From a virus (Duplodnaviria; Heunggongvirae; Uroviricota; Caudoviricetes), in IMG/VR virus record IMGVR_UViG_2728369591_000007: a DNA stretch of 23,612 bases; one strand, given 5' to 3'. Positions 2,825-21,777 of this stretch are shown piece after piece. The stretch's first letter is position 1. Each line of letters opens with the position of its first letter. The notes under the pieces are model-generated. The model saw only the letters and a program-made list of their open reading frames with translations, did not search any database and had not been told where the DNA came from. Both the position numbers and the translations under genes were made by a program.

Positions 2825-3133
2825 AACAACTGGACAAGTATACAGAGGTTTACTAAAGTATAGGGGAGTAGATTGATAAAAACTCACAGAGGATTGCTAT
2901 TTAACAGTTAGCCCTGGAGAAGGGCAATCGCTCTTTTATAAACGAAGGTGTATTGAGCCTTCTACGCTGCTGAAAAGCGGAATGTTCTTTAACAGGCTTT
3001 GGCGCTGACAAAGCGCAATTGTTCTTTAAAACTACTGGATGTCACGCCTAATAGCGTGATCCTGCCGAAATGCAGGGTAGCTCTACCCTTGTGGAGCAAA
3101 CAAACCAAAACAATCTGACTATCTTTTATAAAA

Positions 3134-3162
3134 GACCGCAATATGTTTTTCATATTGTGGTC
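3134..3162 (+). promoter_or_regulatory. 12-bp inverted repeat with 5-nt T loop upstream of alpA (operator or weak terminator)
   Basis: GACCGCAATATG-TTTTT-CATATTGTGGTC, one G/A mismatch between arms; located about 90 bp upstream of the alpA start. Confidence 0.35.
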
Positions 3163-3251
3163 TTTGGCGTATTCGACATTTGACGCAAATAAAACTCTCG
3201 CCATTCGTTGCAGGAGGGGGTTATTGCGTCATTAGTACAGGATATTAATAA

Positions 3252-3455
3252 ATGGCTAATTACAATTCATTAATTCGTCTCTCTGAAGTTCAAAGGCGAA
3301 CTGGTTATAGCAAAGCATGGATTTATCGTCTTATTAGTCAGGGGAGGTTCCCTAAACAGGTAAAAATTGGAAGTCGGGCAATTGCTTTTGTTGAGTCTGA
3401 AATAGATGAATGGATTGAGAAGTGTATATTAGAATCTAGAGACGAGGTGGCCTGA
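3252..3455 (+). CDS. alpA: AlpA-family DNA-binding transcriptional regulator (prophage excisionase-like), 67 aa
   Basis: Translation MANYNSLIRLSEVQRRTGYSKAWIYRLISQGRFPKQVKIGSRAIAFVESEIDEWIEK is a typical AlpA-like HTH; positioned right after the integrase. Confidence 0.8.
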   Translation: MANYNSLIRLSEVQRRTGYSKAWIYRLISQGRFPKQVKIGSRAIAFVESEIDEWIEKCILESRDEVA

Positions 3456-3886
3456 TGGAAAAGAAAAACCGCCCATTACAGGCGGCTAATTCAGATATTC
3501 GCGTATCTGATATTACGCCCCTTACAAAATCCCTTCAAGCACCAAAGCGCACACCGAAAAAGCATCGTGCCCGAGTCTATATGCTGCGTACTGGTATAGA
3601 GGGATGGACAGAAAATGACATTCTTCGCTACTGCCGTCTGTCTTCTGGTCGTAACTATGCAACAGAGTTAGAACGCCAGCTTGGAATCACTCTGGAGCGT
3701 ATCGACGAAAAGAATCCTGATGGTATCGGAACACACCTTCGCTACCGTTTCTCCTGCCGTGGTGATGTTCTGAAAGTGATCACTCATGTTAACCATCTTG
3801 CGAACATAAATGATCACAACGGACTTTCTCAGCAGGAAATTGCCGACATTCTGAAACTCTACCCGAACGCGTTTAACGCCGCCTAA
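3455..3886 (+). CDS. hypothetical protein, 143 aa
   Basis: ORF start overlaps the alpA stop (TGATG); good RBS GAGGTGG; protein-like composition; no family recognised. Confidence 0.6.
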   Translation: MEKKNRPLQAANSDIRVSDITPLTKSLQAPKRTPKKHRARVYMLRTGIEGWTENDILRYCRLSSGRNYATELERQLGITLERIDEKNPDGIGTHLRYRFSCRGDVLKVITHVNHLANINDHNGLSQQEIADILKLYPNAFNAA

Positions 3887-4904: not shown

Positions 4905-5338
4905 TACCCGTCCAGAAGAAGACATTTTCACTGGCTGGCATGTCGCCAAAATCCAGAAATATGACGGCAAAGTCAGGCATTAATACAGCAGATACAAGCA
5001 AAGTTTATCATTTGCTGGTGGTCGGAACGGATGCCTTAACCATACCAGAAATCTCGGGCGATGATATTAGCATTGAGAAGGTCAGCGGCTGCGCCAGAAA
5101 ATTTCTGGTCGTAGATGATGTCTTCCGCTCGTGTAGTGACTCCACAAAAACATTCGTCCACGCGCGTGACGTTAACGAAATGAGCGCGATGTACTGTGCT
5201 TCTGGTTCTTCCAATAGTGAGTTTTCGGAGTCCATAAAAAAGAGCTTGCCGTTATGCGGCAACACGGTTTATGGTTATAAGGCACCTCATAAAACGGGTG
5301 CCGGGTTTCGCAGCCCGGAAATGTACGAGGCGACACAT

Positions 5339-7944: not shown

Positions 7945-10687
7945 TCTTATCCGTCAGGTTATCAGTGCGTCTGAAAACAACTGGCCTCATGTGCTGGGCT
8001 GCCTGAACATAAATGTCCCTGACTCTCCGCGCCGTCATGCTCCCTGCCCTGCATGTGGGGGCAAAGATCGATTCCGGTTCGATGACAACGGGCGCGGTAG
8101 CTTCATCTGTAATCAGTGCGGCGCTGGTGATGGGCTGGATTTAATTAAACGCGTAAATAACTGCGACACAACAGAGGCGGCGCTTCTTGCCGCTGATGTT
8201 CTGGGTATTGATTACCGGACAACGGAAACACCAGAAGCCACCAGCCAGAAACGGGAACAACTGGAAACCGAGCGCCAGCGACGCGAACAGGAGCGCCTGA
8301 AAAGGGCAGAGAAGGACGAACAACAAAGACGGGATACGTTTTCCCGTCAGTTTGATGACATGCGCAGAAAGGCTGTAAACGGCAAATCTGATTATTTGGT
8401 TGCGAAAGGGGTAGGTGATTTTACATTCCCCGTGTTGCCCGATGGATCTCTGTTGCTGGCGCTGGTGGATAAATCCGGCGCAGTAACAGCAGCACAGACT
8501 ATTACCTCACATGGTGAAAAAAGACTCCTGACAGGTTCAGCAAAGCGGGGGGCATATCACGCCATAAACGCACCAGAAACAACACAGAGCATCTTAATCG
8601 CAGAAGGGCTGGCAACGGCATTATCTGCCCATTTAATTCGTCCAGAGGCGCTGACAGTGGCGGCGATTGATGCCGGGAACCTGTTATATGTCGCCCAGGT
8701 ACTGCGGGATAAATTTCCTTCAGCACAAATCATCATTGCTGCGGATAACGACCACAGCGAAGGAAGACAAAACACGGGGAGAATAGCAGCAGAAAAAGCA
8801 GCTTTATCTGTTTCTGGATGGGTGGCATTACCCCCGACAGATCACAAAGCAGACTGGAATGATTACCACCAAAAACACGGCATTAAATGCGCCACAGAAG
8901 CGTTCAATAAGTCAATGTACCAACCACAGGGTAATGGCGTGAAACAGGAGCCACAGACCATTGAGGGAAGCGATTTTAAGGTTATGGATACCGACCCACT
9001 GAAACCAAGAATAGAAAGCCGCGAGGATGGTATTTATTGGGTATCTCCGAGAGCTGACAGCCAGAGTGGAGAAATCATCAATAACGAAAGCTGGTTATGT
9101 TCTCCGTTAAGCGTTATCGGTACTGGCAGAGACGATAAAGACCAGTATCTCATTCTTCGCTGGCTGTCGTTTGGTTCTGAAACGCCGACAACCGCTGCCA
9201 TTCCACTGGCTGATATTGGTGAACGTGAAGGATGGCGCACACTTAAAGCTGGTGGGGTAAATGTCACGACCAAAAGCAGCCTCAGAGCAATGCTGGCAGA
9301 CTGGCTACAACGCAGTGGCTCTCGTGAATTGTGGCGTGTTGCTCATGCCACTGGCTGGCAATGCGGAGCGTACATCATGCCTGATGGGGAAATCATCGGA
9401 ACACCTGAAAATCCTGTGCTGTTCAGCGGGAGAAGCTCAGCCGCAGCCGGATATACCGTCTCAGGGAGCGCGCAAAGCTGGCGTGATAACGTGGCGCGTC
9501 TGGCCTTTGGTAACTATTCAATGATGACCGGGATCGGCGCAGCACTGGCAGCACCATTGATTGGGCTGGTGGGCGCTGACGGGTTCGGCATTCATTTCTA
9601 TGAGCAGTCGAGCGCAGGTAAGACCACCACGGCAAACGTGGCGAGCAGCTTATACGGCAACCCTGATTTACTGCGGCTGACGTGGTACGGAACCGCGCTG
9701 GGGCTGGCAAATGAGGCCGCCGCCCACAATGACGGACTAATGCCGCTTGATGAAGTTGGTCAGGGCGCTGATCCTGTCAGCGTTTCACAGTCTGCCTATG
9801 CGTTATTTAACGGTGTAGGGAAACTGCAAGGCGCTAAAGATGGTGGAAACCGGGATCTAAAACGTTGGCGTACAGTGGCAATCAGCACCGGAGAAATGGA
9901 TTTAGAAACATTTATCGCTACTTCCGGGCGAAAAACCAAAGCCGGGCAACTGGTGCGACTGCTGAATATTCCGTTGACTAAAGCAGTACGCTTTCACGAT
10001 TACCAGAACGGAAAACAGCACGCAGACGCACTGAAAGACGCTTACCAGCATCACCACGGCGCGTCCGGGCGTGAGTGGATTAAATGGCTGGCAGACCACC
10101 AGCAACAGGCTATTAAAACCGTTCGTGATTGCGAAAGCAGATGGAGAAGCCTGATCCCATCCGATTATGGTGAGCAGGTTCACCGTGTAGCCGCGCGATT
10201 TGCCATTCTGGAGGCCGCATTGTTGTTAGGCGAGGTTGTAACAGGCTGGGATGCTCAGACATGCCGTGATGCGATACAGCACAGCTATAACGCATGGTTG
10301 CGCGAGTTCGGCACAGGTAACAAAGAGCATCAGCAGATTATTGAACAAACGGAGGCATTTCTTAATGCCTATGGGCTTAGCCGTTTTGCACCATTTCCAT
10401 ACAGCCCGGCAGATTTGCCCATCAAAGATTTAGCCGGATACCGTCAGCGTGGAGAACATGACGAAAGCCCAATGATTTTCTACACATTCCCGGCCACATT
10501 TGAAAAGGAGATCGCATGTGGTTTCAACGCAAAACAGTTTGCTGAAGTGTTGAAAAAAGCCGGGATGCTAACCCCACCAAACAGCGGTCGTGGATACCAA
10601 AGAAAATCACCACGTATTCAGGGACGACAAATAAACGTTTATGTACTCAATTACCAGCCAGGAGATTATAACTCATCTGAAGAATGA
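7928..10687 (+). CDS. replicative primase-helicase, P4 alpha-like (zinc ribbon + TOPRIM + P-loop NTPase), 919 aa
   Basis: Zinc ribbon CPACGG-x17-CNQCG; TOPRIM-like IIAEGLATALSAH and IIIAADNDHSEG; Walker A-like SSAGKTT and Walker B-like LMPLDEVG; iteron cluster immediately downstream. Confidence 0.85.
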   Translation: MMRNIDLIRQVISASENNWPHVLGCLNINVPDSPRRHAPCPACGGKDRFRFDDNGRGSFICNQCGAGDGLDLIKRVNNCDTTEAALLAADVLGIDYRTTETPEATSQKREQLETERQRREQERLKRAEKDEQQRRDTFSRQFDDMRRKAVNGKSDYLVAKGVGDFTFPVLPDGSLLLALVDKSGAVTAAQTITSHGEKRLLTGSAKRGAYHAINAPETTQSILIAEGLATALSAHLIRPEALTVAAIDAGNLLYVAQVLRDKFPSAQIIIAADNDHSEGRQNTGRIAAEKAALSVSGWVALPPTDHKADWNDYHQKHGIKCATEAFNKSMYQPQGNGVKQEPQTIEGSDFKVMDTDPLKPRIESREDGIYWVSPRADSQSGEIINNESWLCSPLSVIGTGRDDKDQYLILRWLSFGSETPTTAAIPLADIGEREGWRTLKAGGVNVTTKSSLRAMLADWLQRSGSRELWRVAHATGWQCGAYIMPDGEIIGTPENPVLFSGRSSAAAGYTVSGSAQSWRDNVARLAFGNYSMMTGIGAALAAPLIGLVGADGFGIHFYEQSSAGKTTTANVASSLYGNPDLLRLTWYGTALGLANEAAAHNDGLMPLDEVGQGADPVSVSQSAYALFNGVGKLQGAKDGGNRDLKRWRTVAISTGEMDLETFIATSGRKTKAGQLVRLLNIPLTKAVRFHDYQNGKQHADALKDAYQHHHGASGREWIKWLADHQQQAIKTVRDCESRWRSLIPSDYGEQVHRVAARFAILEAALLLGEVVTGWDAQTCRDAIQHSYNAWLREFGTGNKEHQQIIEQTEAFLNAYGLSRFAPFPYSPADLPIKDLAGYRQRGEHDESPMIFYTFPATFEKEIACGFNAKQFAEVLKKAGMLTPPNSGRGYQRKSPRIQGRQINVYVLNYQPGDYNSSEE

Positions 10688-10712
10688 GATTCTTCATGTG
10701 CGTAGAAAAGGT

Positions 10713-10823
10713 GTTGGTTCAGTTGGTTCAGTTGGTTCAATTTGTAAAGAGTATTGTTTTATAAGGATTTTATTCTTTTTATTGAACCAACACTGAACCA
10801 ACAACACGGTATTTTGAACCAAC
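10713..10823. repeat. Iteron cluster 1 (candidate ori): 3 tandem GTTGGTTCA, AT-rich spacer, 3 inverted TGAACCAAC
   Basis: GTTGGTTCA at 10713-10721, 10722-10730, 10731-10739; TGAACCAAC at 10783-10791, 10794-10802, 10815-10823; begins 26 bp after the primase stop. Confidence 0.7.
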
Positions 10824-11143
10824 ACAATGTGACTGAATTGATGCGCACAACACCTGGCTGGCATCAGAGAGTGTTTTACGAGACTTTCGTAAAATCCTGT
10901 GTACAAGGGCGTGACGTTTTTGAAAGTGAGCACTACGAAATTTTCGTAGTTCAAAAAACAGCCTCTGAGAAGTTGTTATGCCTGTTCAGCAAACCATCCG
11001 CATAGCTGATCGCGAATCAAATTACCAATGGAGCCAGAAGCAAGGGCAGAACTGAAAAGCGCCTGCCGTGAAGAGTAATGCGACACCATAAATATAGTTT
11101 TTAGAGTCCATAAAAAACCTGTCAAAACCTGACACACAGAACG

Positions 11144-11177
11144 ATGCCACCAGCTACTGAGCGGTGGCATTTTTTTG
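11144..11177 (+). terminator. Candidate intrinsic terminator ending the early/replication operon
   Basis: ATGCCACC-(11-nt loop)-GGTGGCAT followed by TTTTTTT. Confidence 0.6.
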
Positions 11178-11271
11178 TGCTATTTGTTTCATATTTTGCA
11201 ATTACGATGATGAATATTGCGATTTGTGAAACTATAATAACTGTTGTTTTATACAGTTCTAAGGGGGCGTT

Positions 11272-11433
11272 ATGGCTATTTCAGTAAAGCCGGTATTGAT
11301 AAGTGAGAAGCAAATGGAAGCGATAAAGAAAATTCAGGAAGAGCAGCGTAAAAAATCAGGAATTGGAGTAGCGCCAACTCTGCATGAAATTGCACGAGGG
11401 TTAATAGATAAGGCGCTGGCAGGCTGTATGTGA
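11272..11433 (+). CDS. small protein, 53 aa, possible ribbon-helix-helix-like regulator (speculative)
   Basis: Below the track's length cutoff; ATG at 11272 with SD AAGGGGG upstream; TATAAT at 11233-11238; translation MAISVKPVLISEKQMEAIKKIQEEQRKKSGIGVAPTLHEIARGLIDKALAGCM. Confidence 0.45.
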   Translation: MAISVKPVLISEKQMEAIKKIQEEQRKKSGIGVAPTLHEIARGLIDKALAGCM

Positions 11434-11449
11434 AAATGGATGGCATCGC

Positions 11450-11911
11450 ATGGAACTAAAATTTATTGATAACCCTGTGCGATTACAGGCCTTTCTTAAC
11501 GAGCCAGGCAATACCGAAAATATTGTTGAGCCGGGGCACACGTACTACATCAAGCCTGATGCGGTATATCTCGGCATCTACGAAGGATTAGTGCTGGCTG
11601 GCGTTCATGAAGTGCGTAACTTCTGGCATAGCGTTGTTGAATGCCATGCGGTGTACGACCCCGGATTCCGTGGTGAATATGCACTGCAAGGGCATCGATT
11701 ATTCTGCAAATGGCTTCTCGAAAACTCACCATTCCTTAACAGCATTACCATGGTTCCTGACACCACCAAATACGGACGGGCAATTATCCGTTTGCTTGGC
11801 GCTACCCGTGTTGGTCACCTTGATGATGCTTATATCAGATGTGGTAAACCCGTCGGCGTAACGCTTTATCAGTTAACTCGGCAACAATATAAGGAATTCA
11901 GCGAATGTTAA
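11450..11911 (+). CDS. hypothetical protein, 153 aa (first gene of cargo cassette)
   Basis: Co-directional with, and overlapping, the next gene; protein-like sequence; no family recognised. Confidence 0.6.
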   Translation: MELKFIDNPVRLQAFLNEPGNTENIVEPGHTYYIKPDAVYLGIYEGLVLAGVHEVRNFWHSVVECHAVYDPGFRGEYALQGHRLFCKWLLENSPFLNSITMVPDTTKYGRAIIRLLGATRVGHLDDAYIRCGKPVGVTLYQLTRQQYKEFSEC

Positions 11912-12582
11912 TTACCCACATAGCTCATAAACATCTCAATCGTGCCGTATACGAAAAAGGCGGTGATGGTGGTGCCTCTAAAGCTCAGGCGAAGGCCCAG
12001 CAGCAGGCAATTGATTTGCAGCGCGAGCAGTGGAATACGGTGATGAATAATCTCAAGCCGTATGCAGAAGTCGGATTGCCTGCTTTACAACAACTACAAG
12101 GACTGATGACTCTGGAAGGGCAGAATAAAGCCGCGAATGATTTCTTTGGTTCTGGTTTATATAAAACACAGGCAGATCAGGCCCGTTATCAGAACCTTGT
12201 CTCAGCAGAAGCTACCGGGGGGCTTGGCTCAACAGCTACCAGTAACCAGTTATCTTCCATTGCGCCCATGCTTTATAACAATTGGCTTAGTGGGCAAATG
12301 CAAAATTATGGAAACCTGCTAAATGTCGGGATGAATGCGGCATCAGGGCAGGCAACAGCAGGGCAAAACTACGCCAATAATACCGGACAACTCTTGCAGG
12401 GGCTTGGCGCTATTCGTGCAGGTCAGGCGCAGCAGCCATCCAGTCTTGCGCGTGGTATTGGTGGGGCAGCATCAGGCGCTTTAGCGGGTGCGCAACTTGG
12501 TTCCGTTGTTCCTGGAATAGGTACTGCGGCAGGCGCTATTGGTGGTGGGCTTATTGGTCTTGTTGGGGGGCTTGGATTCTAA
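11905..12582 (+). CDS. Gln/Gly-rich protein with C-terminal glycine-zipper hydrophobic segment, 225 aa (ejection/pilot-protein-like)
   Basis: C-terminus GIGGAASGALAGAQLGSVVPGIGTAAGAIGGGLIGLVGGLGF; stop overlaps the next start (TAATG). Confidence 0.6.
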   Translation: MLITHIAHKHLNRAVYEKGGDGGASKAQAKAQQQAIDLQREQWNTVMNNLKPYAEVGLPALQQLQGLMTLEGQNKAANDFFGSGLYKTQADQARYQNLVSAEATGGLGSTATSNQLSSIAPMLYNNWLSGQMQNYGNLLNVGMNAASGQATAGQNYANNTGQLLQGLGAIRAGQAQQPSSLARGIGGAASGALAGAQLGSVVPGIGTAAGAIGGGLIGLVGGLGF

Positions 12583-13901
12583 TGGCGACATGGCAACTTG
12601 GCGGGCTGCCTAGCATGGCACCGCAAAATGATAATGCTCCTCGTTCTTCCGTTCCTCAGCCTGTGCAGTATCAGCAGCAGCCAAACGTAGGTTTAATGGC
12701 GCTACAGGGGCTAAGAGGCGTTGCTGAGATTAATCAGCAGGCGCAAATTTCCCAGCAGCTAAAAGAATATCAGGCACAGTTGGGTAGTGCGGTAGCTAAT
12801 AATGATCGTGTTGGCGTGCAGAAGTTAATGGCCCAGTATCCCCAGTTTATGGCTGATTCTCAAAAACAGATGGGATTCATTGATGCTGAGCAAAATCGGC
12901 AGACCGCTGACGCTGCCATGAATCTGCGTCTTGCGTCACAAACTGGAGATCCACTGACCATGCAGAAGGCCATTCAGCAGGCAAATCCAGTATTACAGCG
13001 ATTTGGTCTTCCTGCTGAAGAGGTTTATCAGTCTTGGCAGAATGACCCACAGGAATTCAACAGAATCACTGACCTCATCCACCTCCATGCTGATCCAAAT
13101 AGTTACTTTAGTGTTCAAGAGAAGCAGCAAGGGCAGAGTATTGCACAGCAGAACGCAGATACATCTGCATATAATGCTCAGGTTAATGCGGAACAGGGTA
13201 ATCGGCGTCTCGATATGGAGCAGTTCAAAGTCCTATCCGATAACCAGCTACGCACGAGAGAAATGGTTCTGAAAGCACGACTTGGACGTGCTCAAAATGA
13301 CATCGAGAGAGACAAGCTCAATGCTGAACTGAGCAAGGTACAGCAGGCGAAAGTGGAGAAGATGAACGATAAAATTAATACTGTTGCAGGTAACATCGAC
13401 TCCTTGAACTCTGCGCTTGAAGTGGGTCATGAACTGGCGGGAATTGTAGGGAAACATCCTTCGGCCGTTACCCGTTCGCAGAACTATAACCCCCTGACGC
13501 TGGGGTTTGGATTCCTTCCTGATGTAGCAGAAGACACACGAAGCCTACGCGCCAAAGCTGATGAATACAACCTAAAGGTTATTCTGCCTAGCCTCAAAGG
13601 GACTTTTGGCTCTAACCCAACCGAAGGGGAAAGGGCTGCCCTTATGCAATCTCAAAATGGCATTAAGTCAGCAACCAGCAATGAGGCATTTTTGCGAGAG
13701 TTGAATAAAGCGCAGGACGTAATTATTCGAATGCAGAAACGACAGATTGCCGGGCTCGGTATTCCTGTAACCAAATCTAAGGACGAAGAAACTGATACTA
13801 AAATGCTGTTGCAGGATCCTTCTCTGGTTAAGGATTATGTGACCGCACATGGCTATCTGCCGGAAAGTTACTATCAGGCAAAACTTAAGGGATGGCAATG
13901 A
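12582..13901 (+). CDS. Gln-rich predicted coiled-coil protein, 439 aa (internal-virion/ejection-protein-like)
   Basis: Long Q/A/N-rich helical-looking sequence; translationally coupled to both flanking genes. Confidence 0.6.
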   Translation: MATWQLGGLPSMAPQNDNAPRSSVPQPVQYQQQPNVGLMALQGLRGVAEINQQAQISQQLKEYQAQLGSAVANNDRVGVQKLMAQYPQFMADSQKQMGFIDAEQNRQTADAAMNLRLASQTGDPLTMQKAIQQANPVLQRFGLPAEEVYQSWQNDPQEFNRITDLIHLHADPNSYFSVQEKQQGQSIAQQNADTSAYNAQVNAEQGNRRLDMEQFKVLSDNQLRTREMVLKARLGRAQNDIERDKLNAELSKVQQAKVEKMNDKINTVAGNIDSLNSALEVGHELAGIVGKHPSAVTRSQNYNPLTLGFGFLPDVAEDTRSLRAKADEYNLKVILPSLKGTFGSNPTEGERAALMQSQNGIKSATSNEAFLRELNKAQDVIIRMQKRQIAGLGIPVTKSKDEETDTKMLLQDPSLVKDYVTAHGYLPESYYQAKLKGWQ

Positions 13902-16618
13902 TGGCACAACTGACAGAAAAACAGAAAGCCTATTCCCGTCATCTCGATGAAAAATATGGTTTCCCATCAGGGACGATGGAAACATTAGTTGGCAATGAAT
14001 CTAGTGGTAACGGAAGTGCCGAGTCACCGAAAGGAGCTAGAGGATTTGCTCAACTGATGCCCTCAGTAATGAGTGATGCTGGTTATCGTGGAACAGATCC
14101 GCGCTCACTGCCATTTGAAAAGCAAATGGATATCGCAGCAAACCATCTCAATAAAGGAATGAAGCGATTTGGTGATATAGGTATGGCATTGGCTGGGTAT
14201 AATTCTGGCTATGCTCGTATTAATGCCGTAAGAAACGGTAAATCTACACTGCCAGATGAAACGGCTAATTACGTAAGTAAATTTGCAGATGCCGGAATAA
14301 TCCCTGATGACAGTGAAATCTTGCAGTTTGCACAAACCAGTCAACATCGCAATCTTCAGCAGCCTGACTACTCAGAGCTTGATAAAGAAATCTCTCAGGT
14401 GGGAGATATTTCTGCATGGGAAGCAAAACGTCAGCAATTTAAGAACATAGAAGCAGGACTACCAACAGCCAGTTCATGGGAGCAGAAAAGAGCTCATTTT
14501 CTCGCCGATGAAAATGCCGGGGAACCGCAGCAGCAAGTAGCCAAGTCTAACCTTAATCCTGAGATGGAATATCTTTCGCCAGGACTGAAAGCTGCGCCAG
14601 AGCAGATGGCCAGAGGGATTGCTAATATACCGTTTGATGTAATGGACGCAGGCGTGGGGGTAGTCAATGCGGCGCAATCAGCCGGAGCATGGGCAGCTCA
14701 GAAGCTTGGTGTGGGTGATGGTACATACACGCCCATATCACCTGTCTTTCGCCCAGTAGACCAACCTACAGATCCATACGCGCAGGCTGGTGAGCAGCTA
14801 GCACCTTACCTTATTACAGGATTAGGTGCAGGAAAGGCAGCTACCGCAGCTTCTTCAGTTGCCAACGCTCCACGTGCTGAACGTGCGGCCACAAAGGTGG
14901 CTAGTATGTTGGCAGAAAACCTGCCAGGTACATTGGTGAACGCCCAAAAGAACGGGCAGATCAGCCCAGAAGACCTAGCAAAAGAGACAGGTATTGGCCT
15001 AGCAGGATCGCTAGGAGCACGCGCTTTAATAAAGAGCGGACAGACAGCCAGTGACGTAATGCGAGATGTATTGCGGAGTAATACAAATCAATCAAGCTAT
15101 GTGTTAGGGGCAGCAAATACTCTGGAAACCGCCAATGATGTATCGAAAGCAGCGCGTTCTGCCGTAGGCCGAGAGCATATCGCATCGCAGGCATCAAACG
15201 TCAGAGATGATGTCGCTAAGGCGGCGAAAATCACTGGTATTAATATCAACACCCTGACGCCTGGAATGCGCTCAGGTAGTCGTGGAATTGCCCAAGCAGA
15301 AGGTGTTCTGGCATCAACTCCTGGGAATGTTCAGGATGCTCACCTTACGGCCTTCAATGAAATATCCTCAAAGTTGAATAAGCAGTTGTCTGATTTCGGT
15401 GCTGAGTCTGGAAGCGCATCAGAAAAAAGCGCAGCAATTAAAGAGCGCATCATCGCGAGCCTCAGTGATATGAAAACAGCAGAGAATATGGCATGGGCAG
15501 AACTGCGAAGCACGATGCCACGCGAAAGGATGAAAATGAGTAATGGGATGGCTGTCGTCCAAGCAGAAAAAGCAGCCAATGTTCCACTCAGCCCGGAGAT
15601 GAAACAGTTTCAGGCTGCCAATAACCAAGGTGGCGGCATAACCTTCGACGGGATGAAGGCATGGCGTGCTAAGTTTGCTGATGCTGAACAAGCAAACACC
15701 CGGGCAGGTAAGGCCAATGCCGCCCGGGTTGCCGGAGAAATGCGCAGAGCTATCACTGATGACATGCGCATCATGGCTGAAAAAGGAAACTTCCTCACAG
15801 AATGGCAGAAAGCTAACGATCTCTCTAAAAGTTACATTATCGCCAAACAAAATGCCGAATCTGTTTTTGGTCGAGATCTCGCATCAGACGCTATGGTAAG
15901 AAAAGGTGCCGATACGCTTAAGGCATCCGCAAACACTGGAACGGGAGCTTTTCACCGTCTTATCTCCGCGCTGCCGGAAGCAGAACGCCAACCAGCAATA
16001 GCATCTATTCTTCAGCATGCTGTGGCGCAGGGAGAGAAGGGAGGAATCGGTGAAGAGTCTGGTATCCAGTATTTTGCCAAGCTCATGACCCAGCAGAATG
16101 TAAACGCCATCAGTCGTCATGCGCCAGATCTCGGTAGAATGATGAAAGAGTTCGGTGTACTCGCTAAAGCCAGCACCAGACCGCAGCGATACGTAGAGCG
16201 CACGGGAAGAACAACTGAGGCTCTCAAAACGCTCGATTCAGGCCTTCCAAAGATCGTCGGCGTGATTATGAACGGAGTTCAACAGTCAGGTGCGATCGCT
16301 GGAGGCTTTGGCGGTGGTGTAATTGGTTCGATTAGTGGTTTGGTTGCTGGTGGCGCGCTGAGAAATACTGTGGCTAAGATTGGGGCGACAAGAAGTGGTC
16401 GATATGCGATAGAGAAAGCCGTTCAGGAAGCTACAAAAGCAGTGCGCGCAGGGGCATCACCAGCAGCGATCGCCGCAGCAGAGAAACGATTTTCGGCCAA
16501 TAAAATTGCCATGAAAGCAATTCGTGATGCCGTTGGGGCTGAAGAATTCGTGAAACTGACAAGGGCCGGGATTGTAGCTACCCTCAGTGGCATGAAAGAT
16601 GTTAGCGAATGGGAATAG
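13892..16618 (+). CDS. large protein with N-terminal lytic transglycosylase (SLT) domain and C-terminal glycine-rich hydrophobic segment, 908 aa
   Basis: SLT family signature near the N-terminus: catalytic E-S in GNESSGN, GFAQLMPS, and AGYNSGYAR; C-terminal GAIAGGFGGGVIGSISGLVAGGAL; architecture recalls podovirus internal core proteins of the T7 gp16 class. Confidence 0.7.
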   Translation: MAMMAQLTEKQKAYSRHLDEKYGFPSGTMETLVGNESSGNGSAESPKGARGFAQLMPSVMSDAGYRGTDPRSLPFEKQMDIAANHLNKGMKRFGDIGMALAGYNSGYARINAVRNGKSTLPDETANYVSKFADAGIIPDDSEILQFAQTSQHRNLQQPDYSELDKEISQVGDISAWEAKRQQFKNIEAGLPTASSWEQKRAHFLADENAGEPQQQVAKSNLNPEMEYLSPGLKAAPEQMARGIANIPFDVMDAGVGVVNAAQSAGAWAAQKLGVGDGTYTPISPVFRPVDQPTDPYAQAGEQLAPYLITGLGAGKAATAASSVANAPRAERAATKVASMLAENLPGTLVNAQKNGQISPEDLAKETGIGLAGSLGARALIKSGQTASDVMRDVLRSNTNQSSYVLGAANTLETANDVSKAARSAVGREHIASQASNVRDDVAKAAKITGININTLTPGMRSGSRGIAQAEGVLASTPGNVQDAHLTAFNEISSKLNKQLSDFGAESGSASEKSAAIKERIIASLSDMKTAENMAWAELRSTMPRERMKMSNGMAVVQAEKAANVPLSPEMKQFQAANNQGGGITFDGMKAWRAKFADAEQANTRAGKANAARVAGEMRRAITDDMRIMAEKGNFLTEWQKANDLSKSYIIAKQNAESVFGRDLASDAMVRKGADTLKASANTGTGAFHRLISALPEAERQPAIASILQHAVAQGEKGGIGEESGIQYFAKLMTQQNVNAISRHAPDLGRMMKEFGVLAKASTRPQRYVERTGRTTEALKTLDSGLPKIVGVIMNGVQQSGAIAGGFGGGVIGSISGLVAGGALRNTVAKIGATRSGRYAIEKAVQEATKAVRAGASPAAIAAAEKRFSANKIAMKAIRDAVGAEEFVKLTRAGIVATLSGMKDVSEWE

Positions 16619-16768
16619 ACGCTCTAACTAACAAAACCATAATAGCCAAGGACGGCATACTGATATTGAGCCAACTATCAAAATTCCATATCACATTACG
16701 AGCCTGTGGCTTACATTCGCTTACAGTGATGATAATTTATAACCACGCAATTCTTAGGTGAGATTATC

Positions 16769-17467
16769 ATGATTAAAAATCTTCTTTTAATATTATCCCT
16801 GTCATTATTGGCTGGATGCGTACAAAAACCGTTAGTAACGGTCAATGCTTTATCTTCCGGGCAATCTGTCGGTAAGAAGTTCTTGATCATCCCCGCAAGC
16901 CAAGAACTTTGGAACACCAAACAGATTGAATACACTCAAATAGCTACGGTAGTAGCCGCCAGTTTATCAAGCCAAGGATATACACAAGTTAAAGATGAAA
17001 AATTGGCTGACCAGGTAATTCTCTTGAACTTTTTGAGAAGCGGGGCCATTTCAAATACTCGTAATGTAACCATCCCAATATACGGGCAAACTGGTGTGAG
17101 CTCAGCAACAACGTACGGAAACTCGAACACCACGTTCAATAGTTATGGTGGTGGCTACGGTACAGCTAATACCACTGGAACGGCAACAACAGTTTATACG
17201 CCTACTTATGGAATTACTGGCGCGTATAACACAACTGTGACGGACACGTTCTACGGCGCAGGGGTGATACTCCAGTCGTTTGATGCCAAGGCCTATCTCA
17301 ATAATAGGCAGATTAATATGTTATGGAAAGTTGGTAGCTCAGTCGTCTCGCAACAGTCTGATGGAATTGCTGATTACAAGGGGTTGGCGAGAATAGCCGC
17401 TAGCTATGCCGGGAAAAATACAGAAGGTGATATAACTTTTAATGTTGACCCTAAAGCACCAAATTAA
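16769..17467 (+). CDS. lipoprotein, 232 aa, Thr/Gly/Tyr-rich low-complexity mature region
   Basis: Signal peptide with lipobox MIKNLLLILSLSLLAGC; RBS AGGTGA at spacing 8; intrinsic terminator immediately downstream. Confidence 0.7.
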   Translation: MIKNLLLILSLSLLAGCVQKPLVTVNALSSGQSVGKKFLIIPASQELWNTKQIEYTQIATVVAASLSSQGYTQVKDEKLADQVILLNFLRSGAISNTRNVTIPIYGQTGVSSATTYGNSNTTFNSYGGGYGTANTTGTATTVYTPTYGITGAYNTTVTDTFYGAGVILQSFDAKAYLNNRQINMLWKVGSSVVSQQSDGIADYKGLARIAASYAGKNTEGDITFNVDPKAPN

Positions 17468-17473
17468 CTAATA

Positions 17474-17495
17474 AGCCCGGTACGCCGGGCATTTT
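17474..17495 (+). terminator. Intrinsic terminator after the lipoprotein gene
   Basis: GCCCGG-TACG-CCGGGC hairpin followed by ATTTTG. Confidence 0.6.
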
Positions 17496-17680
17496 GCCCC
17501 CTATTATTCATGAATCGCTTTTTCTAGAAGGTATGCGACAAACGTTAAGTGACATTGCCTACACATTCGGGGCGGGATTTCAAATCCGCTCCCAGTTGAT
17601 GGGGCCGTTACAGTACGCGCATATCCGCTTTATGTGAAACAGGAAGATTTTTCTGATATCACTGCCACAGCAAAACACCA

Positions 17681-17703
17681 ATTTCGAGACAAGTACGCGC
17701 GCG
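17681..17703. repeat. CG-alternating 23-bp repeat, copy A
   Basis: ATTTCGAGACAAGTACGCGCGCG; followed by the 20-bp palindrome GTTGCAAAAAATTTTGCAAC at 17714-17733. Confidence 0.6.
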
Positions 17704-17966
17704 AGGGGTATCAGTTGCAAAAAATTTTGCAACTACGTCCGACCAATACACACACGATGGCGGGGGATACCATAAAACTGTTCTCTACATGAGACAGAGT
17801 GGTGGTGATGTGTTGATTATCGGCCTATATGCGCACAGGACGCGCTATGACAATGTTTTATGCGGGTACACCAATCACATGTATCTGGTGTGATAAATCG
17901 CGTTACATGACCTCTCATGTTGTGCTGGTGGTTATCACGACGTTCTGAATCTGGCTTTTGTCTGAT

Positions 17967-17989
17967 ATTTTGCGACAAGTACGCGCGCG
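17967..17989. repeat. CG-alternating 23-bp repeat, copy B
   Basis: ATTTTGCGACAAGTACGCGCGCG; shares the upstream TCTGATAT with copy A. Confidence 0.6.
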
Positions 17990-18326
17990 TAACATCGAAA
18001 TTATCGGATGGCGTATGTTGCTGGCAAGATAAAGTCGGCGTAATACAAAGGCGTTACTTGATAGCAGCAAGATTACAACAATGGTTGTTGAATTTGAGCG
18101 ATGTAAGGAATTGATTTAGGGAGGCGCTGATGGCTAAAAAGTTCCACTACCAGCGGATGAATGCGCCAGCGATGGCCGTTTGGTAGTAAAAGAGGAGCCA
18201 TTCCTCAATCAGTTGAATACATTATGCCAACTAAATGGGTGGGGGCACTGTGTGGGTATTCAGCGGTGACGGTATTTTTTAAGCCAAGGACTATCCGTAG
18301 CAGGGGGACTCATTTTGAAATATTTA

Positions 18327-18764
18327 TCATATGTAACTTATTATTTTAGATAAAGATTTCCAGTTAAAGAAAAAAGTTATCATTGATATAATCAAATATG
18401 CCCCTGCGAGTAGCAGGGCATAATAATCCAGAGGCAGATTGCTGACAACAGGGGCAAACATCGAGATCATTGCTAATAGGCAGGCTGTGATCAGCGTAGT
18501 TCCTGTATCAAAAAGCCCCTCAATAATGCCTTTTAGTACTCCGTTACTTTTTAGAGCGCCTACAATTCCCTTTGAACTATCAAAGCTACTTAGCATGGTG
18601 ACTGATGCCAAAACAAAACCAAAGAGAACTCCAGAAATAGTTGAAAGAGCACCAGCAGCCGAAATGACAGCATTGTGATCTAGGTCGTGTAAAAAATGGG
18701 CACCAGCAATAGCCATAGCTAGAGCAAACAATGACTTGGCAGCAAACAATTTCCGAGAACTCAT
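18327..18764 (-). CDS. small integral membrane protein, 145 aa, about four predicted transmembrane helices (candidate effector)
   Basis: Translation MSSRKLFAAKSLFALAMAIAGAHFL...LLAGAYLIISMITFFFNWKSLSKIISYI is dominated by hydrophobic segments; RBS AGGA 8 nt upstream; 12 bp downstream of the 361-aa gene on the same strand; AT-rich by eye. Confidence 0.7.
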   Translation of the reverse strand: MSSRKLFAAKSLFALAMAIAGAHFLHDLDHNAVISAAGALSTISGVLFGFVLASVTMLSSFDSSKGIVGALKSNGVLKGIIEGLFDTGTTLITACLLAMISMFAPVVSNLPLDYYALLLAGAYLIISMITFFFNWKSLSKIISYI

Positions 18765-18776
18765 AATGTATTCCTG

Positions 18777-19862
18777 TTACGTTTGACTAACCAAATAGTA
18801 CTGGGTTAGATACCTAAGGTTGTCATTCTTTGCTTGTAGCATAGCATTTTTAACGTCAGTATCGGTCGGATACCCATCTGCTTGGATAGGCACCATCTTC
18901 TTTACCGTAAGAACTTCGTCTACAAGACTTTTCTTCTTTTTATCGCCCTGAGCAACAACATTTGCTTTCTCAAAAGTTAAACGACCATCACCACCAGGGA
19001 ACTTTTCTAGCATCTCCTTAAGGCTTTTTTTAACGTCATCCTCAAGCCATCCCTTTGCTTTTCTTTTTAATGGAGAATGTCCGCGTAACGAAATAGTCAG
19101 GTGGCTTGAACTGGTGCCTCTGATCATCTCAATCATCTGATTCGCGAACATTCCATCGAGTTGATACTGTGCGGCATTGAAGTTTCTTGGGATGGCCACA
19201 GAAATCTCGCAGCTTCTTAGATTGGATCCAGTTTCGAGTAGTTCTTTGATGCTTTCTTCTTTCCAAATGGCTTCAAAAGAAACAGGGACTCCGCGATCAC
19301 TGGAGTTGAAAAGAAGGAAGGCTAAGTCACTATGGCGTGGACCTAAATGATTTAAAGACAATACTAGAATGTCTGTCTGAGGATAATAAATAAAGTATGT
19401 ACGTTCTGAAAGAGTCTTTGCCCCGGCTAGAGGGATTTTCTCTTCCACCCACTCTTTATCTGTAATATATGCCAGTGTTGCGCTTTTTCTTCTTCGAGAC
19501 ATGAATCCGAAGTAGGAGCCATCCTCGGGTGAGATGTCTAGAAAATGAATTTTAAGTTCTCTTTCACCAAAGTCTGCATAGTGGGTCATCTTGAAGTCTT
19601 TAGAACACCGATCATAGAGATTTTTAAAGGCCTCTGCGGTTAACCCCTTGTTACTAGTGCGAATATTCTCAGAGCTTGTGTAAAAGCCCACCCTTACAGA
19701 TTTCAAACTTTGATCTTTTGGTGCCACAGTCATTTGAGCTCCATTGTACTCTGCGATAGTTTTTGCACACCTTGAAATCAAAATCTCCATGTCAGTCACG
19801 AGAAAATAACTATGGATGAAACCCATCAAAGGCATTGAATACAGGTGGCTTTTGAGAATCAT
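18777..19862 (-). CDS. hypothetical soluble protein, 361 aa (possibly about 316 aa from an internal start); candidate sensor partner of the membrane protein
   Basis: Long minus-strand ORF with protein-like composition; an alternative ATG at MTVAPK has a better SD (GGAG); no family recognised; AT-rich by eye. Confidence 0.7.
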   Translation of the reverse strand: MILKSHLYSMPLMGFIHSYFLVTDMEILISRCAKTIAEYNGAQMTVAPKDQSLKSVRVGFYTSSENIRTSNKGLTAEAFKNLYDRCSKDFKMTHYADFGERELKIHFLDISPEDGSYFGFMSRRRKSATLAYITDKEWVEEKIPLAGAKTLSERTYFIYYPQTDILVLSLNHLGPRHSDLAFLLFNSSDRGVPVSFEAIWKEESIKELLETGSNLRSCEISVAIPRNFNAAQYQLDGMFANQMIEMIRGTSSSHLTISLRGHSPLKRKAKGWLEDDVKKSLKEMLEKFPGGDGRLTFEKANVVAQGDKKKKSLVDEVLTVKKMVPIQADGYPTDTDVKNAMLQAKNDNLRYLTQYYLVSQT

Positions 19863-20213
19863 CCTAACCTGGTGACGGTGGTTCGCATATCCTGATGGAT
19901 GATCAGTGATTAATCAATGCGCCAAGCAGATGTGTCTATGTGTTTGTTAATCATTGCATGACAGTAGATCGACATGGGAGATCACGTTATATAGTTGAAT
20001 TGTTAGGATATCCATGCACCGATCAACTGACTAGGCTGATGTGCTTTTTAGCAGGTGCCATATAGTAGTTAGGCGGTTCTGTGAAATGATTACTGTTCCA
20101 GCATAACTGCGGCATAAAGCGGTGCTATATAAGCTATTTGCTGGCGGATTTAGTCTTCACCGTTCATATATGTAGTGACTATTTGACAGAGTGTTAGTTC
20201 ACGGACACTTTTT

Positions 20214-20313
20214 GTTGGTTCAAAATGAGTTGATGTTGGTTCAATATTTTAGAAAAAACACAATAAAAACAACGCTCTTTACAAATTGAACCAACTGAAC
20301 CAACTGAACCAAC
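20214..20313. repeat. Iteron cluster 2 (crr-like second site), mirror image of cluster 1
   Basis: GTTGGTTCA at 20214-20222 and 20235-20243; TGAACCAAC tandem at 20287-20295, 20296-20304, 20305-20313; the spacer shares ATTTGTAAAGAG..TTGTTTT with cluster 1 in reverse complement. Confidence 0.7.
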
Positions 20314-20349
20314 ACCTTTTTGCTTATCTATATAATCTGAGAGGCAGAA

Positions 20350-20631
20350 ATGATAAGGGACAGGAAAGCTGAAGAGCTGGAGTCAAAAGGGCTATACCGG
20401 AGAGCTGCCGCACGATGGATGGAAGTCATGCTGTTATGCAGCGAGGACGATGATCGGGAATGGATAAAGCGCCGCCGTGAAACGTGTCTGGAGAACGTGA
20501 AGCGCCCGCCCGTGAAGGTTGAGGAATTTGGCGACCTGCATAAAGCTGTTACCGAAACGCAACACCGCATGGGGATAGCGCAACCGAACGGTAACGCCTT
20601 CCGGTTAAATGGCGGCAAGAGGCAAAGGTAG
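20350..20631 (+). CDS. PerC-like small transcriptional regulator (tentative), 93 aa
   Basis: N-terminus MIRDRKAEELESKGLYRRAAARWMEVM resembles PerC-family proteins from prophage-like elements as I remember them; TATAAT at 20331-20336 and GAGG RBS upstream. Confidence 0.45.
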   Translation: MIRDRKAEELESKGLYRRAAARWMEVMLLCSEDDDREWIKRRRETCLENVKRPPVKVEEFGDLHKAVTETQHRMGIAQPNGNAFRLNGGKRQR

Positions 20632-21234: not shown

Positions 21235-21777
21235 ATGTACCAGCTAAAGATAACCATCCGAGACAGCAAACCACCTATATGGCGGCGTGTGCTGGTTCCA
21301 GAGCAAATCCCCTTTAGTAAACTTCATGCCGTGATCCAGTTAGCTTTTGGCTGGAATGACGAACACCTGTATATGTTCGAGAAAGGGCGTAAAGGTGATC
21401 CAGGTAGCGAGTATCGCGTATGGGGTGAGGATGAAAGCATGGGTAACGCGGCAATCACGCCACTATGGGCGGCGCTCCAGAATGAGGGTGACAAGCTGGT
21501 TTACACGTATGACTTTGGCGACTGGTGGGATTGCGTCATTGTGCTGGAGAAGCAAACACACGATACGAGTAATCAGCCCATTAGCTGCCTGCGTGGGAAA
21601 GGCACCACCCCGGCGGAAAACTCAGGCGGCTTGCATGGTTACAATGAATTGCTATTACAGGCCAGAGAGTCTGATAATCCTGAGCAGGCCGAGATCCACA
21701 ATTTCCTGATGCTGGATATTGAACGCCGGGTTTACGACCTGAGCCGCATCAACGACAGATTGCAGGCTATTAACTGA
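21235..21777 (+). CDS. pRiA4b ORF-3-like family protein, 180 aa
   Basis: Hallmark motifs YQLKITIRDSKPPIWRRVLVP...LHAVIQLAFGWNDEHLYMF and YTYDFGDWWDCVIVLE. Confidence 0.75.
   Translation: MYQLKITIRDSKPPIWRRVLVPEQIPFSKLHAVIQLAFGWNDEHLYMFEKGRKGDPGSEYRVWGEDESMGNAAITPLWAALQNEGDKLVYTYDFGDWWDCVIVLEKQTHDTSNQPISCLRGKGTTPAENSGGLHGYNELLLQARESDNPEQAEIHNFLMLDIERRVYDLSRINDRLQAIN

Follow-up and report, generated by a model that had tools for sequence, protein, structure and literature searches.

The window analysed here, meaning the whole of a 23,612-nucleotide stretch of DNA (IMG/VR record IMGVR_UViG_2728369591_000007), contains a phage satellite integrated at thrW in Escherichia coli, and this report concerns two adjacent minus-strand genes in the accessory part of that satellite. 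Judged by analogy with characterized systems, the pair is probably a RexAB-type two-component phage-exclusion module, acting through abortive infection or growth arrest and carried as accessory cargo. That it comprises a protein with the RexA fold and a conserved partner with four transmembrane (TM) segments is very likely. A role in exclusion or abortive infection is the best supported because the small protein has the size and four-TM topology of RexB, the gene order is that of rexAB, and a homologous pair in a lambdoid prophage (L006) occupies the rex slot next to cI. The original prediction, made from the sequence alone, proposed an undescribed abortive-infection or exclusion system and pointed to lambda RexA/RexB as an architectural parallel. 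On the grounds just given, that parallel is more than an analogy and the proposed role remains the best supported. The word "undescribed" finds no support: the pair is a divergent member of the known RexAB class, to which it adds a sequence family, and not a categorically new system.

The large gene and its protein family

The two open reading frames (ORFs) lie at 18327-18764 and 18777-19862 on the minus strand, 12 bp apart, as originally described. The features of the pair are as follows.

18327-18764, minus strand: rexB-like gene, 145 amino acids (aa); four-TM inner-membrane protein, predicted effector
18765-18776, minus strand: intergenic spacer of 12 nt, carrying the AGGAA Shine-Dalgarno sequence (18775-18771) of the rexB-like gene, as read from the sequence
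18777-19733, minus strand: rexA-like gene, 318 aa; divergent putative DUF6731-family protein, predicted cytoplasmic sensor and DNA-binding component
19734-19862, minus strand: 43 codons by which the ORF extends upstream in frame; a probable non-coding 5' leader, containing a GGAG Shine-Dalgarno sequence

The longer ORF encodes 361 aa, the length first proposed for the large protein. Most likely, however, the gene starts at the ATG at 19733 and encodes 318 aa, the 361-aa form being 43 codons too long. This start is preferred because the GGAG sequence (19742-19739) lies 5 nt upstream of it, the RefSeq annotation of the gene is 957 nt long, the phrog_7651 profile does not match the 361-aa form until residue 46, and full-length homologs are 309-323 aa in length. 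The AGGAA sequence within the 12-nt spacer fits the organization of the pair as an operon.

Of 5426 complete E. coli genomes, 42 carry the pair at an identity of at least 99%, in each case on the chromosome and with both ORFs intact. A decaying, non-functional remnant or a mis-called pair of ORFs would be in keeping with the over-extended 361-aa call and with the lack of a clear promoter, but this explanation is very improbable. Both ORFs are intact in these 42 genomes and annotated as genes in the records listed, both have good Shine-Dalgarno sequences, 57 columns are invariant among homologs of 43-91% identity, and the pair has been kept across the Enterobacterales, Vibrio and metagenomic relatives. 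Since the ORFs are intact and conserved, the possibility that the large ORF is a pseudogene, which the original prediction had named as a ground for rejection, was dropped.

Both genes are annotated "hypothetical protein" in all the records listed. Searches of Pfam, NCBIfam and PADLOC with the large and the small protein gave nothing significant, only sub-threshold noise (TubZ-like_C, DUF2649). The proteins had been thought to resemble no family, but the large one matches phrog_7651 (E = 3.6e-139) and the small one phrog_8552 (E = 3.6e-54), both of unknown function, and the large protein can also be linked to a Pfam family by transitivity. A search of 5.8 billion proteins yielded 36 cluster representatives related to the large protein and nothing more; these come from Enterobacterales such as Klebsiella, Pantoea, Cronobacter, Citrobacter, Salmonella, Yersinia and Xenorhabdus. 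The more distant representatives, with 43-50% identity to the large protein, carry PF20505 (DUF6731). Three of them (P0030, P0035 and P0022) score 31-45 bits against this model, for which the gathering threshold is 27 bits, whereas the window protein gives no match to it even at E <= 10 and its close clade is likewise below detection. Because the homologs pass the Pfam threshold and the window protein does not, its predicted membership of DUF6731 rests on transitive homology.

When 1.84 billion representatives were searched exhaustively with a profile, no more than 136 proteins reached E <= 1e-3, most of them 280-310 aa long. Of the aligned members, 69 of the 82 aligned family members match DUF6731, while none of the 82 matches Pfam RexA. 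Named distant members of DUF6731 come from Shewanella, Pseudoalteromonas and Vibrio. A genome scan with the narrow-clade alignment found three species-representative genomes only.

Fold of the large protein and its probable relationship to RexA

An AlphaFold2 model of the large protein was built with 32 homologs (mean predicted local distance difference test score, pLDDT, 79.8; predicted template modelling score, pTM, 0.73). The original prediction had proposed a structure search as a check, and in Foldseek the best match of this model was 8TWQ_B, with an E value of 2.4e-6, a probability of 1.00 and an alignment over the full length; the next matches were two RdgC entries. RexA (8TWQ) is at the top of both structure searches made with the large protein, and RdgC, a reported structural relative of RexA (PMC11077077), appears in both. 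Identity to RexA in the structural alignment is approximately 15%. The published topology of RexA is a split globular domain that is interrupted by a dimerization domain (PMC11077077). The model begins with an N-terminal block of beta-sheet, continues with a block of four main strands and several helices and ends with C-terminal helices; this predicted order of elements, a split globular domain with an inserted beta-sheet/helix domain, fits the RexA topology. No recognizable catalytic domain was found in the large protein by profile and structure searches, in agreement with the earlier statement that it has no recognizable catalytic motif.

A possible link to RexA also emerges from the sequences. 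Pairwise BLASTP of the large protein with lambda RexA gives a collinear N-terminal alignment (E = 0.005). A second BLASTP segment (query 342-357 with RexA 218-233, E = 0.46) was discarded, as it conflicts with the hhalign register. When the broad DUF6731 alignment was compared with 30 bona fide RexA sequences by hhalign, the two aligned over 221 collinear columns (13-263 with 2-238) at E = 8.5e-5, with a GPxxSDLxxFL motif common to both.

The small membrane protein and its possible relationship to RexB

Hydropathy analysis of the 145-aa protein identifies four hydrophobic segments (6-24, 40-58, 89-107 and 115-133), and an AlphaFold2 model, although of low confidence (pLDDT 64), consists of four long helices; both agree with its initial description as a four-helix membrane protein. 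Its lysine and arginine residues are concentrated at the N-terminus, in a central loop of about 30 aa and at the C-terminus. This distribution implies a topology in which both termini and the central loop would be cytoplasmic (N-in/C-in), and RexB has the same pattern of hydropathy and of lysine and arginine residues.

Pairwise BLASTP finds nothing between the small protein and RexB. A profile of the partner family, made from 24 partners and compared by hhalign with five diverse RexB sequences, gives a score of 25.9 (E = 1.3e-3) over 85 columns that are collinear through TM1, TM2, the central loop and TM3. In controls, reversed alignments scored 11.7, and 60 local column shuffles, which keep the TM pattern, scored 13.0 +/- 2.6 with a maximum of 20.8. 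Homology of the small protein to RexB is thus plausible but unproven from the sequence comparison; in favor of its functional equivalence to RexB are its size and topology together with the obligate pairing. In a Foldseek search with the model of the small protein, rank 2 was taken by a 165-aa protein of mycobacteriophage Sbash (E = 0.08), which may be gp31; gp30/gp31 of this phage is a Rex-like system that has been tested.

Pairing and genomic contexts of the module

The 15 family loci compared include the window, two lambdoid phages and one Vibrio prophage; also among them are seven close homologs from genomes or metagenomes and five distant DUF6731 representatives. In all 15, the next gene on the same strand after the DUF6731 gene is an ORF of 132-150 aa. 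This partner is predicted to have four TM segments in 14 loci, the remaining one being cut by the end of its contig, and a TM2 motif, S-G-x-L-x-G-F-x-x-A/T-x-x-S, is common to all partners. The module was found in accessory positions of mobile elements, prophages and satellites, in all the contexts examined.

In L006, the order is a cro-like gene, a divergent CI (HTH_3 and Peptidase_S24), the large-protein homolog (48% identity to the window protein), the four-TM gene, kil, recT and yqaJ. Prophages with a genuine rexA-rexB pair (L019-L022) have the same backbone and slot, as seen by direct comparison with L020. This position bears on a different explanation, in which the RexA-like protein mainly regulates the life cycle of its own mobile element, exclusion is absent or incidental and the membrane partner is accessory. 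Lambda RexA does bias the CI/Cro bistable switch towards lysis by binding DNA, independently of RexB (PMC11077077), and in L006 the gene for a CI-type repressor immediately precedes the pair. Most copies, however, are far from an immunity region, in a moron slot, at prophage ends or in the satellite cargo slot, and the retention of the four-TM partner in 15 of 15 loci favors a self-contained two-part module. These contexts and the strict pairing argue against a mainly regulatory role, which we consider unlikely.

Five copies (phages cdtI and vB_EcoS-733R5, and loci L010, L008 and L009) occupy a classic moron slot, with Q on one side, the lysis or adjacent genes on the other and the pair on the opposite strand. 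The homolog of phage vB_EcoS-733R5 (L003; ON470608.1, 6001-6942; 44% identity to the window protein) is annotated as a "portal (connector) protein", almost certainly a mis-annotation; the gene is located between Q and the lysis genes on the opposite strand. In the Citrobacter braakii locus (L008, 5001-5942), the tblastn match begins at 5001, but the start of the longest ORF listed for the frame (237 aa) is at 5229, and this copy could be disrupted or have an alternative start.

A moron function other than defense was considered in several forms: a recombination protein or nucleoid-associated protein resembling RdgC, with its partner as membrane anchor, a modulator of lysis or of the holin, or a superinfection-exclusion protein that blocks injection. 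The presence of RdgC among the structural matches and the five copies that adjoin lysis cassettes are in its favor, but RdgC is not the best structural match of the large protein, and as a whole this explanation appears improbable. The holin or lysis role was rejected because the phages already encode a holin and carry the pair on the opposite strand, and because lysis genes are absent from other contexts.

Elsewhere the pair is found at the end of the prophage, next to DinI or tail-fibre genes (L012 and L007). The two-gene module at 1389-2896 of L005 (PQ189356.1) adjoins the integrase gene in a Vinavirales prophage of Vibrio cyclitrophicus, which is 14.6 kb in size and non-tailed with a PM2-like capsid (tectivirus-like). 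The Rex-like module is therefore common to tailed and non-tailed phage lineages.

The satellite and its cargo slot

The window is E. coli DNA that begins with proA (1-1254) and a tRNA-Thr gene (1369-1444), after which comes the integrated element. The satellite encodes an integrase, a helix-turn-helix (HTH) protein, an AntA/AntB protein, Ash, a TOPRIM/DUF927 primase, DUF2824 and P22-like ejection/injection proteins, followed by the lipoprotein ORF, the Rex-like pair and perC. Two further features adjoin the pair.

16769-17467: lipoprotein ORF
18192-18206, minus strand: weak terminator-like hairpin and T-run, tentative, approximately 120 nt downstream of the operon

The number of terminator-like sites such as the latter is no higher than expected from shuffled sequence. 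Between them, the stretches 21235-21777 and 20350-20631, downstream of the pair, encode a regulator of the PerC family and a protein of the PRiA4_ORF3 family (Pfam, 1.1e-42), and the window ends with IS1-related sequence. The region 11450-16618 encodes DUF2824 and the P22-like DNA ejection/injection proteins (RefSeq names). Structural genes of this kind are unusual in a satellite of the integrase/primase type, and they may point to a P22-like helper phage on which the satellite depends or with which it interferes.

The window contains 11 copies of the 9-mer TGAACCAAC, where 0.15 are expected, in two clusters (10713-10823 and 20214-20313) that each mix tandem and inverted copies. The first immediately follows the TOPRIM/DUF927 primase gene, the second is just upstream of perC, and together they flank the entire accessory block of DUF2824, ejection proteins, lipoprotein and Rex-like pair. 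The clusters probably represent the iterons of a replication origin, seemingly duplicated. The pair lies between the lipoprotein gene and the second repeat cluster, and it is more AT-rich than proA and the primase gene, both as originally stated: the GC content is 0.41-0.42 across 18001-20500 as against about 0.50-0.58 in those two genes. Other segments of the island (3001-3500, 10501-11500 and 16501-17000) are as AT-rich as the region of the pair.

The window copy occupies a satellite cargo slot between the injection-protein and lipoprotein genes on one side and perC on the other, with no adjacent repressor. A sister satellite with the same backbone (L023, NZ_OZ039045.1) is integrated between yicC and yicG. 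There, three other minus-strand genes of unknown function (204, 73 and 147 aa, at 17993-19873) replace the lipoprotein gene and the Rex-like pair (window 16769-19862). Because L023 carries unrelated genes in the same interval, this interval is a variable cargo slot, as the original prediction had suggested should be looked for. The alternative cargo genes of L023 have no significant match in PADLOC or Pfam, and the defense content of the slot is unproven. In E. coli ABU 83972 (L001, 16922-19435), the injection-protein gene is truncated and annotated as a pseudogene, and another hypothetical gene of 129 aa stands in place of the lipoprotein ORF of the window beside the Rex-like pair; there is thus microheterogeneity of the slot even among near-identical islands.

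Proposed mechanism and its weighing

A mechanism can be proposed from lambda RexAB, Sbash gp30/31, CarolAnn gp44/43 and RexABpp (PMC12894663, PMC6426596, PMC11077077). By analogy with these systems, the large cytoplasmic protein would act as a sensor, dimeric and binding DNA non-specifically, for a phage product or for an intermediate of replication or recombination, and it would activate the membrane partner during infection by a susceptible phage. The membrane partner would then depolarize or permeabilize the inner membrane, with collapse of ATP and of macromolecular synthesis. Growth would halt, phage development would stop and the infection would be aborted, with the presumed outcome that the lysogen population and the satellite itself are protected.

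The roles of the two proteins could also be reversed. Mycobacteriophage Butters gp30/gp31 is described as having a cytoplasmic effector that the membrane protein sequesters until infection (PMC12894663). A toxic or antiviral RexA-like protein held by its membrane partner in this way would have the same architecture, which alone cannot separate the two logics. Nevertheless, such a reversal seems rather unlikely: the membrane protein is the effector in four of the five Rex-like systems described (PMC12894663), and the large protein has no recognizable catalytic domain.

Several results weigh against a RexAB-type exclusion module. Neither the window proteins nor their homologs are matched by the Pfam (PF15969/PF15968) or PADLOC models for RexA and RexB; by comparison, lambda RexA matches the same curated models at 1e-97 (Pfam PF15969) and 9e-110 (PADLOC), and the PADLOC RexB model recognizes lambda RexB at 8.6e-61. 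The hhalign probability for the broad DUF6731-RexA comparison is just 60%, and the narrow-clade alignment gives no significant hhalign match to the RexA family. Plain hidden Markov model (HMM) searches of PDB sequences with the narrow and the broad profiles do not retrieve 8TWQ; the marginal matches to eIF2-alpha in these searches (E = 0.015) were regarded as spurious. Global template modelling scores (TM-scores) to RexA are low (0.33), which would be expected if the two domains differ in angle in the model, RexA having hinge and swivel loops. The link to RexB is weak (hhalign probability 19%), and Foldseek comparison of the low-confidence small-protein model with viral predicted structures found nothing significant, lambda RexB being outside the top 50. 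Inspection of the sequence upstream of the operon revealed no convincing promoter. A literature search found no phage-resistance phenotype for the pair or for any DUF6731 protein, and the literature searched makes no mention of DUF6731, phrog_7651, phrog_8552 or the RefSeq accessions. Finally, whether exclusion is the primary function of Rex in lambda is still debated (PMC11077077).

Beyond the window itself, the chances are about even that DUF6731 with its four-TM partner is a previously unrecognized, self-contained branch of the Rex superfamily. Such a branch would move between the thrW satellite, lambdoid and P2-like prophages and the non-tailed, tectivirus-like prophage of Vibrio; it would have its own phage triggers and escape the Rex models of PADLOC and Pfam, and the satellite would use it to exclude competing phages.

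Among abortive-infection systems, RexAB has been known the longest; to our knowledge, its trigger and its mechanism of activation have yet to be resolved. A divergent homolog native to E. coli would be amenable to standard coliphage panels, and the essential features of sensor and channel would emerge when it is compared with lambda. If the RexAB-type assignment is correct, Pfam DUF6731 and PHROGs 7651 and 8552 gain their first hypothesis of function, and the pair is a further case of a phage satellite with anti-phage cargo in a variable slot. Since the PADLOC RexA and RexB models recognize no DUF6731 protein or partner, automated defense annotation misses the module, and systems of the Rex type are probably undercounted. 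The module would also add a new sequence family to the five Rex-like systems described so far (PMC12894663).

Comparison with known systems

Against all the models of PADLOC-DB v2, including Kiwa KwaA/KwaB, neither protein of the pair had a match at E <= 1, and a Kiwa-like or other PADLOC system was rejected on that account; one distant relative gave an insignificant match to PDC-M67A (E = 0.007). Pfam DUF6731 (PF20505), with homologs of the window protein above its threshold and the window protein below it, has no function attached. E. coli RdgC (PDB 2OWL/2OWY), which is among the structural matches of the large protein, shares domain folds with RexA; the window protein, for which RexA is the best structural match, is not, as RdgC would be, the product of a standalone chromosomal gene.

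The closest resemblance is to lambda RexA/RexB. In both systems, the gene for a large cytoplasmic protein is followed after a short gap by that for a small membrane protein, and the sizes are 279 and 144 aa in lambda as compared with 318 and 145 aa in the window, the large protein of the window being about 40 aa longer. RexB, like the window partner, has four TM segments and an N-in/C-in prediction. Both pairs are carried by temperate elements, and the homologous pair of L006 is in the same slot adjacent to cI as lambda rexAB. The window pair differs in its position, which is a satellite cargo slot and not the one after cI, and in falling outside the Pfam and PADLOC models for RexA and RexB.

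Other systems could be compared by description. Sbash gp30/gp31 and gp44/gp43 of Gordonia phage CarolAnn are, like the window pair, two-gene modules of a cytoplasmic and a four-TM protein. They occur in temperate phages and confer heterotypic defense, and the central cytoplasmic loop of their membrane protein is functionally important (PMC6426596). They differ in belonging to actinobacteriophages, in the reported assignment to Pfam DUF4747 and in the length of their large proteins (337-372 aa). RexABpp (PP_5643/PP_5644) of Pseudomonas putida prophage P1, reported in 2026 in the paper that lists only five Rex-like systems, is a member of the RexAB class from a different host and carrier element (PMC12894663). 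As RexABpp exemplifies, the class to which we assign the window pair already includes members detectable by HHpred or by structure only (PMC12894663).

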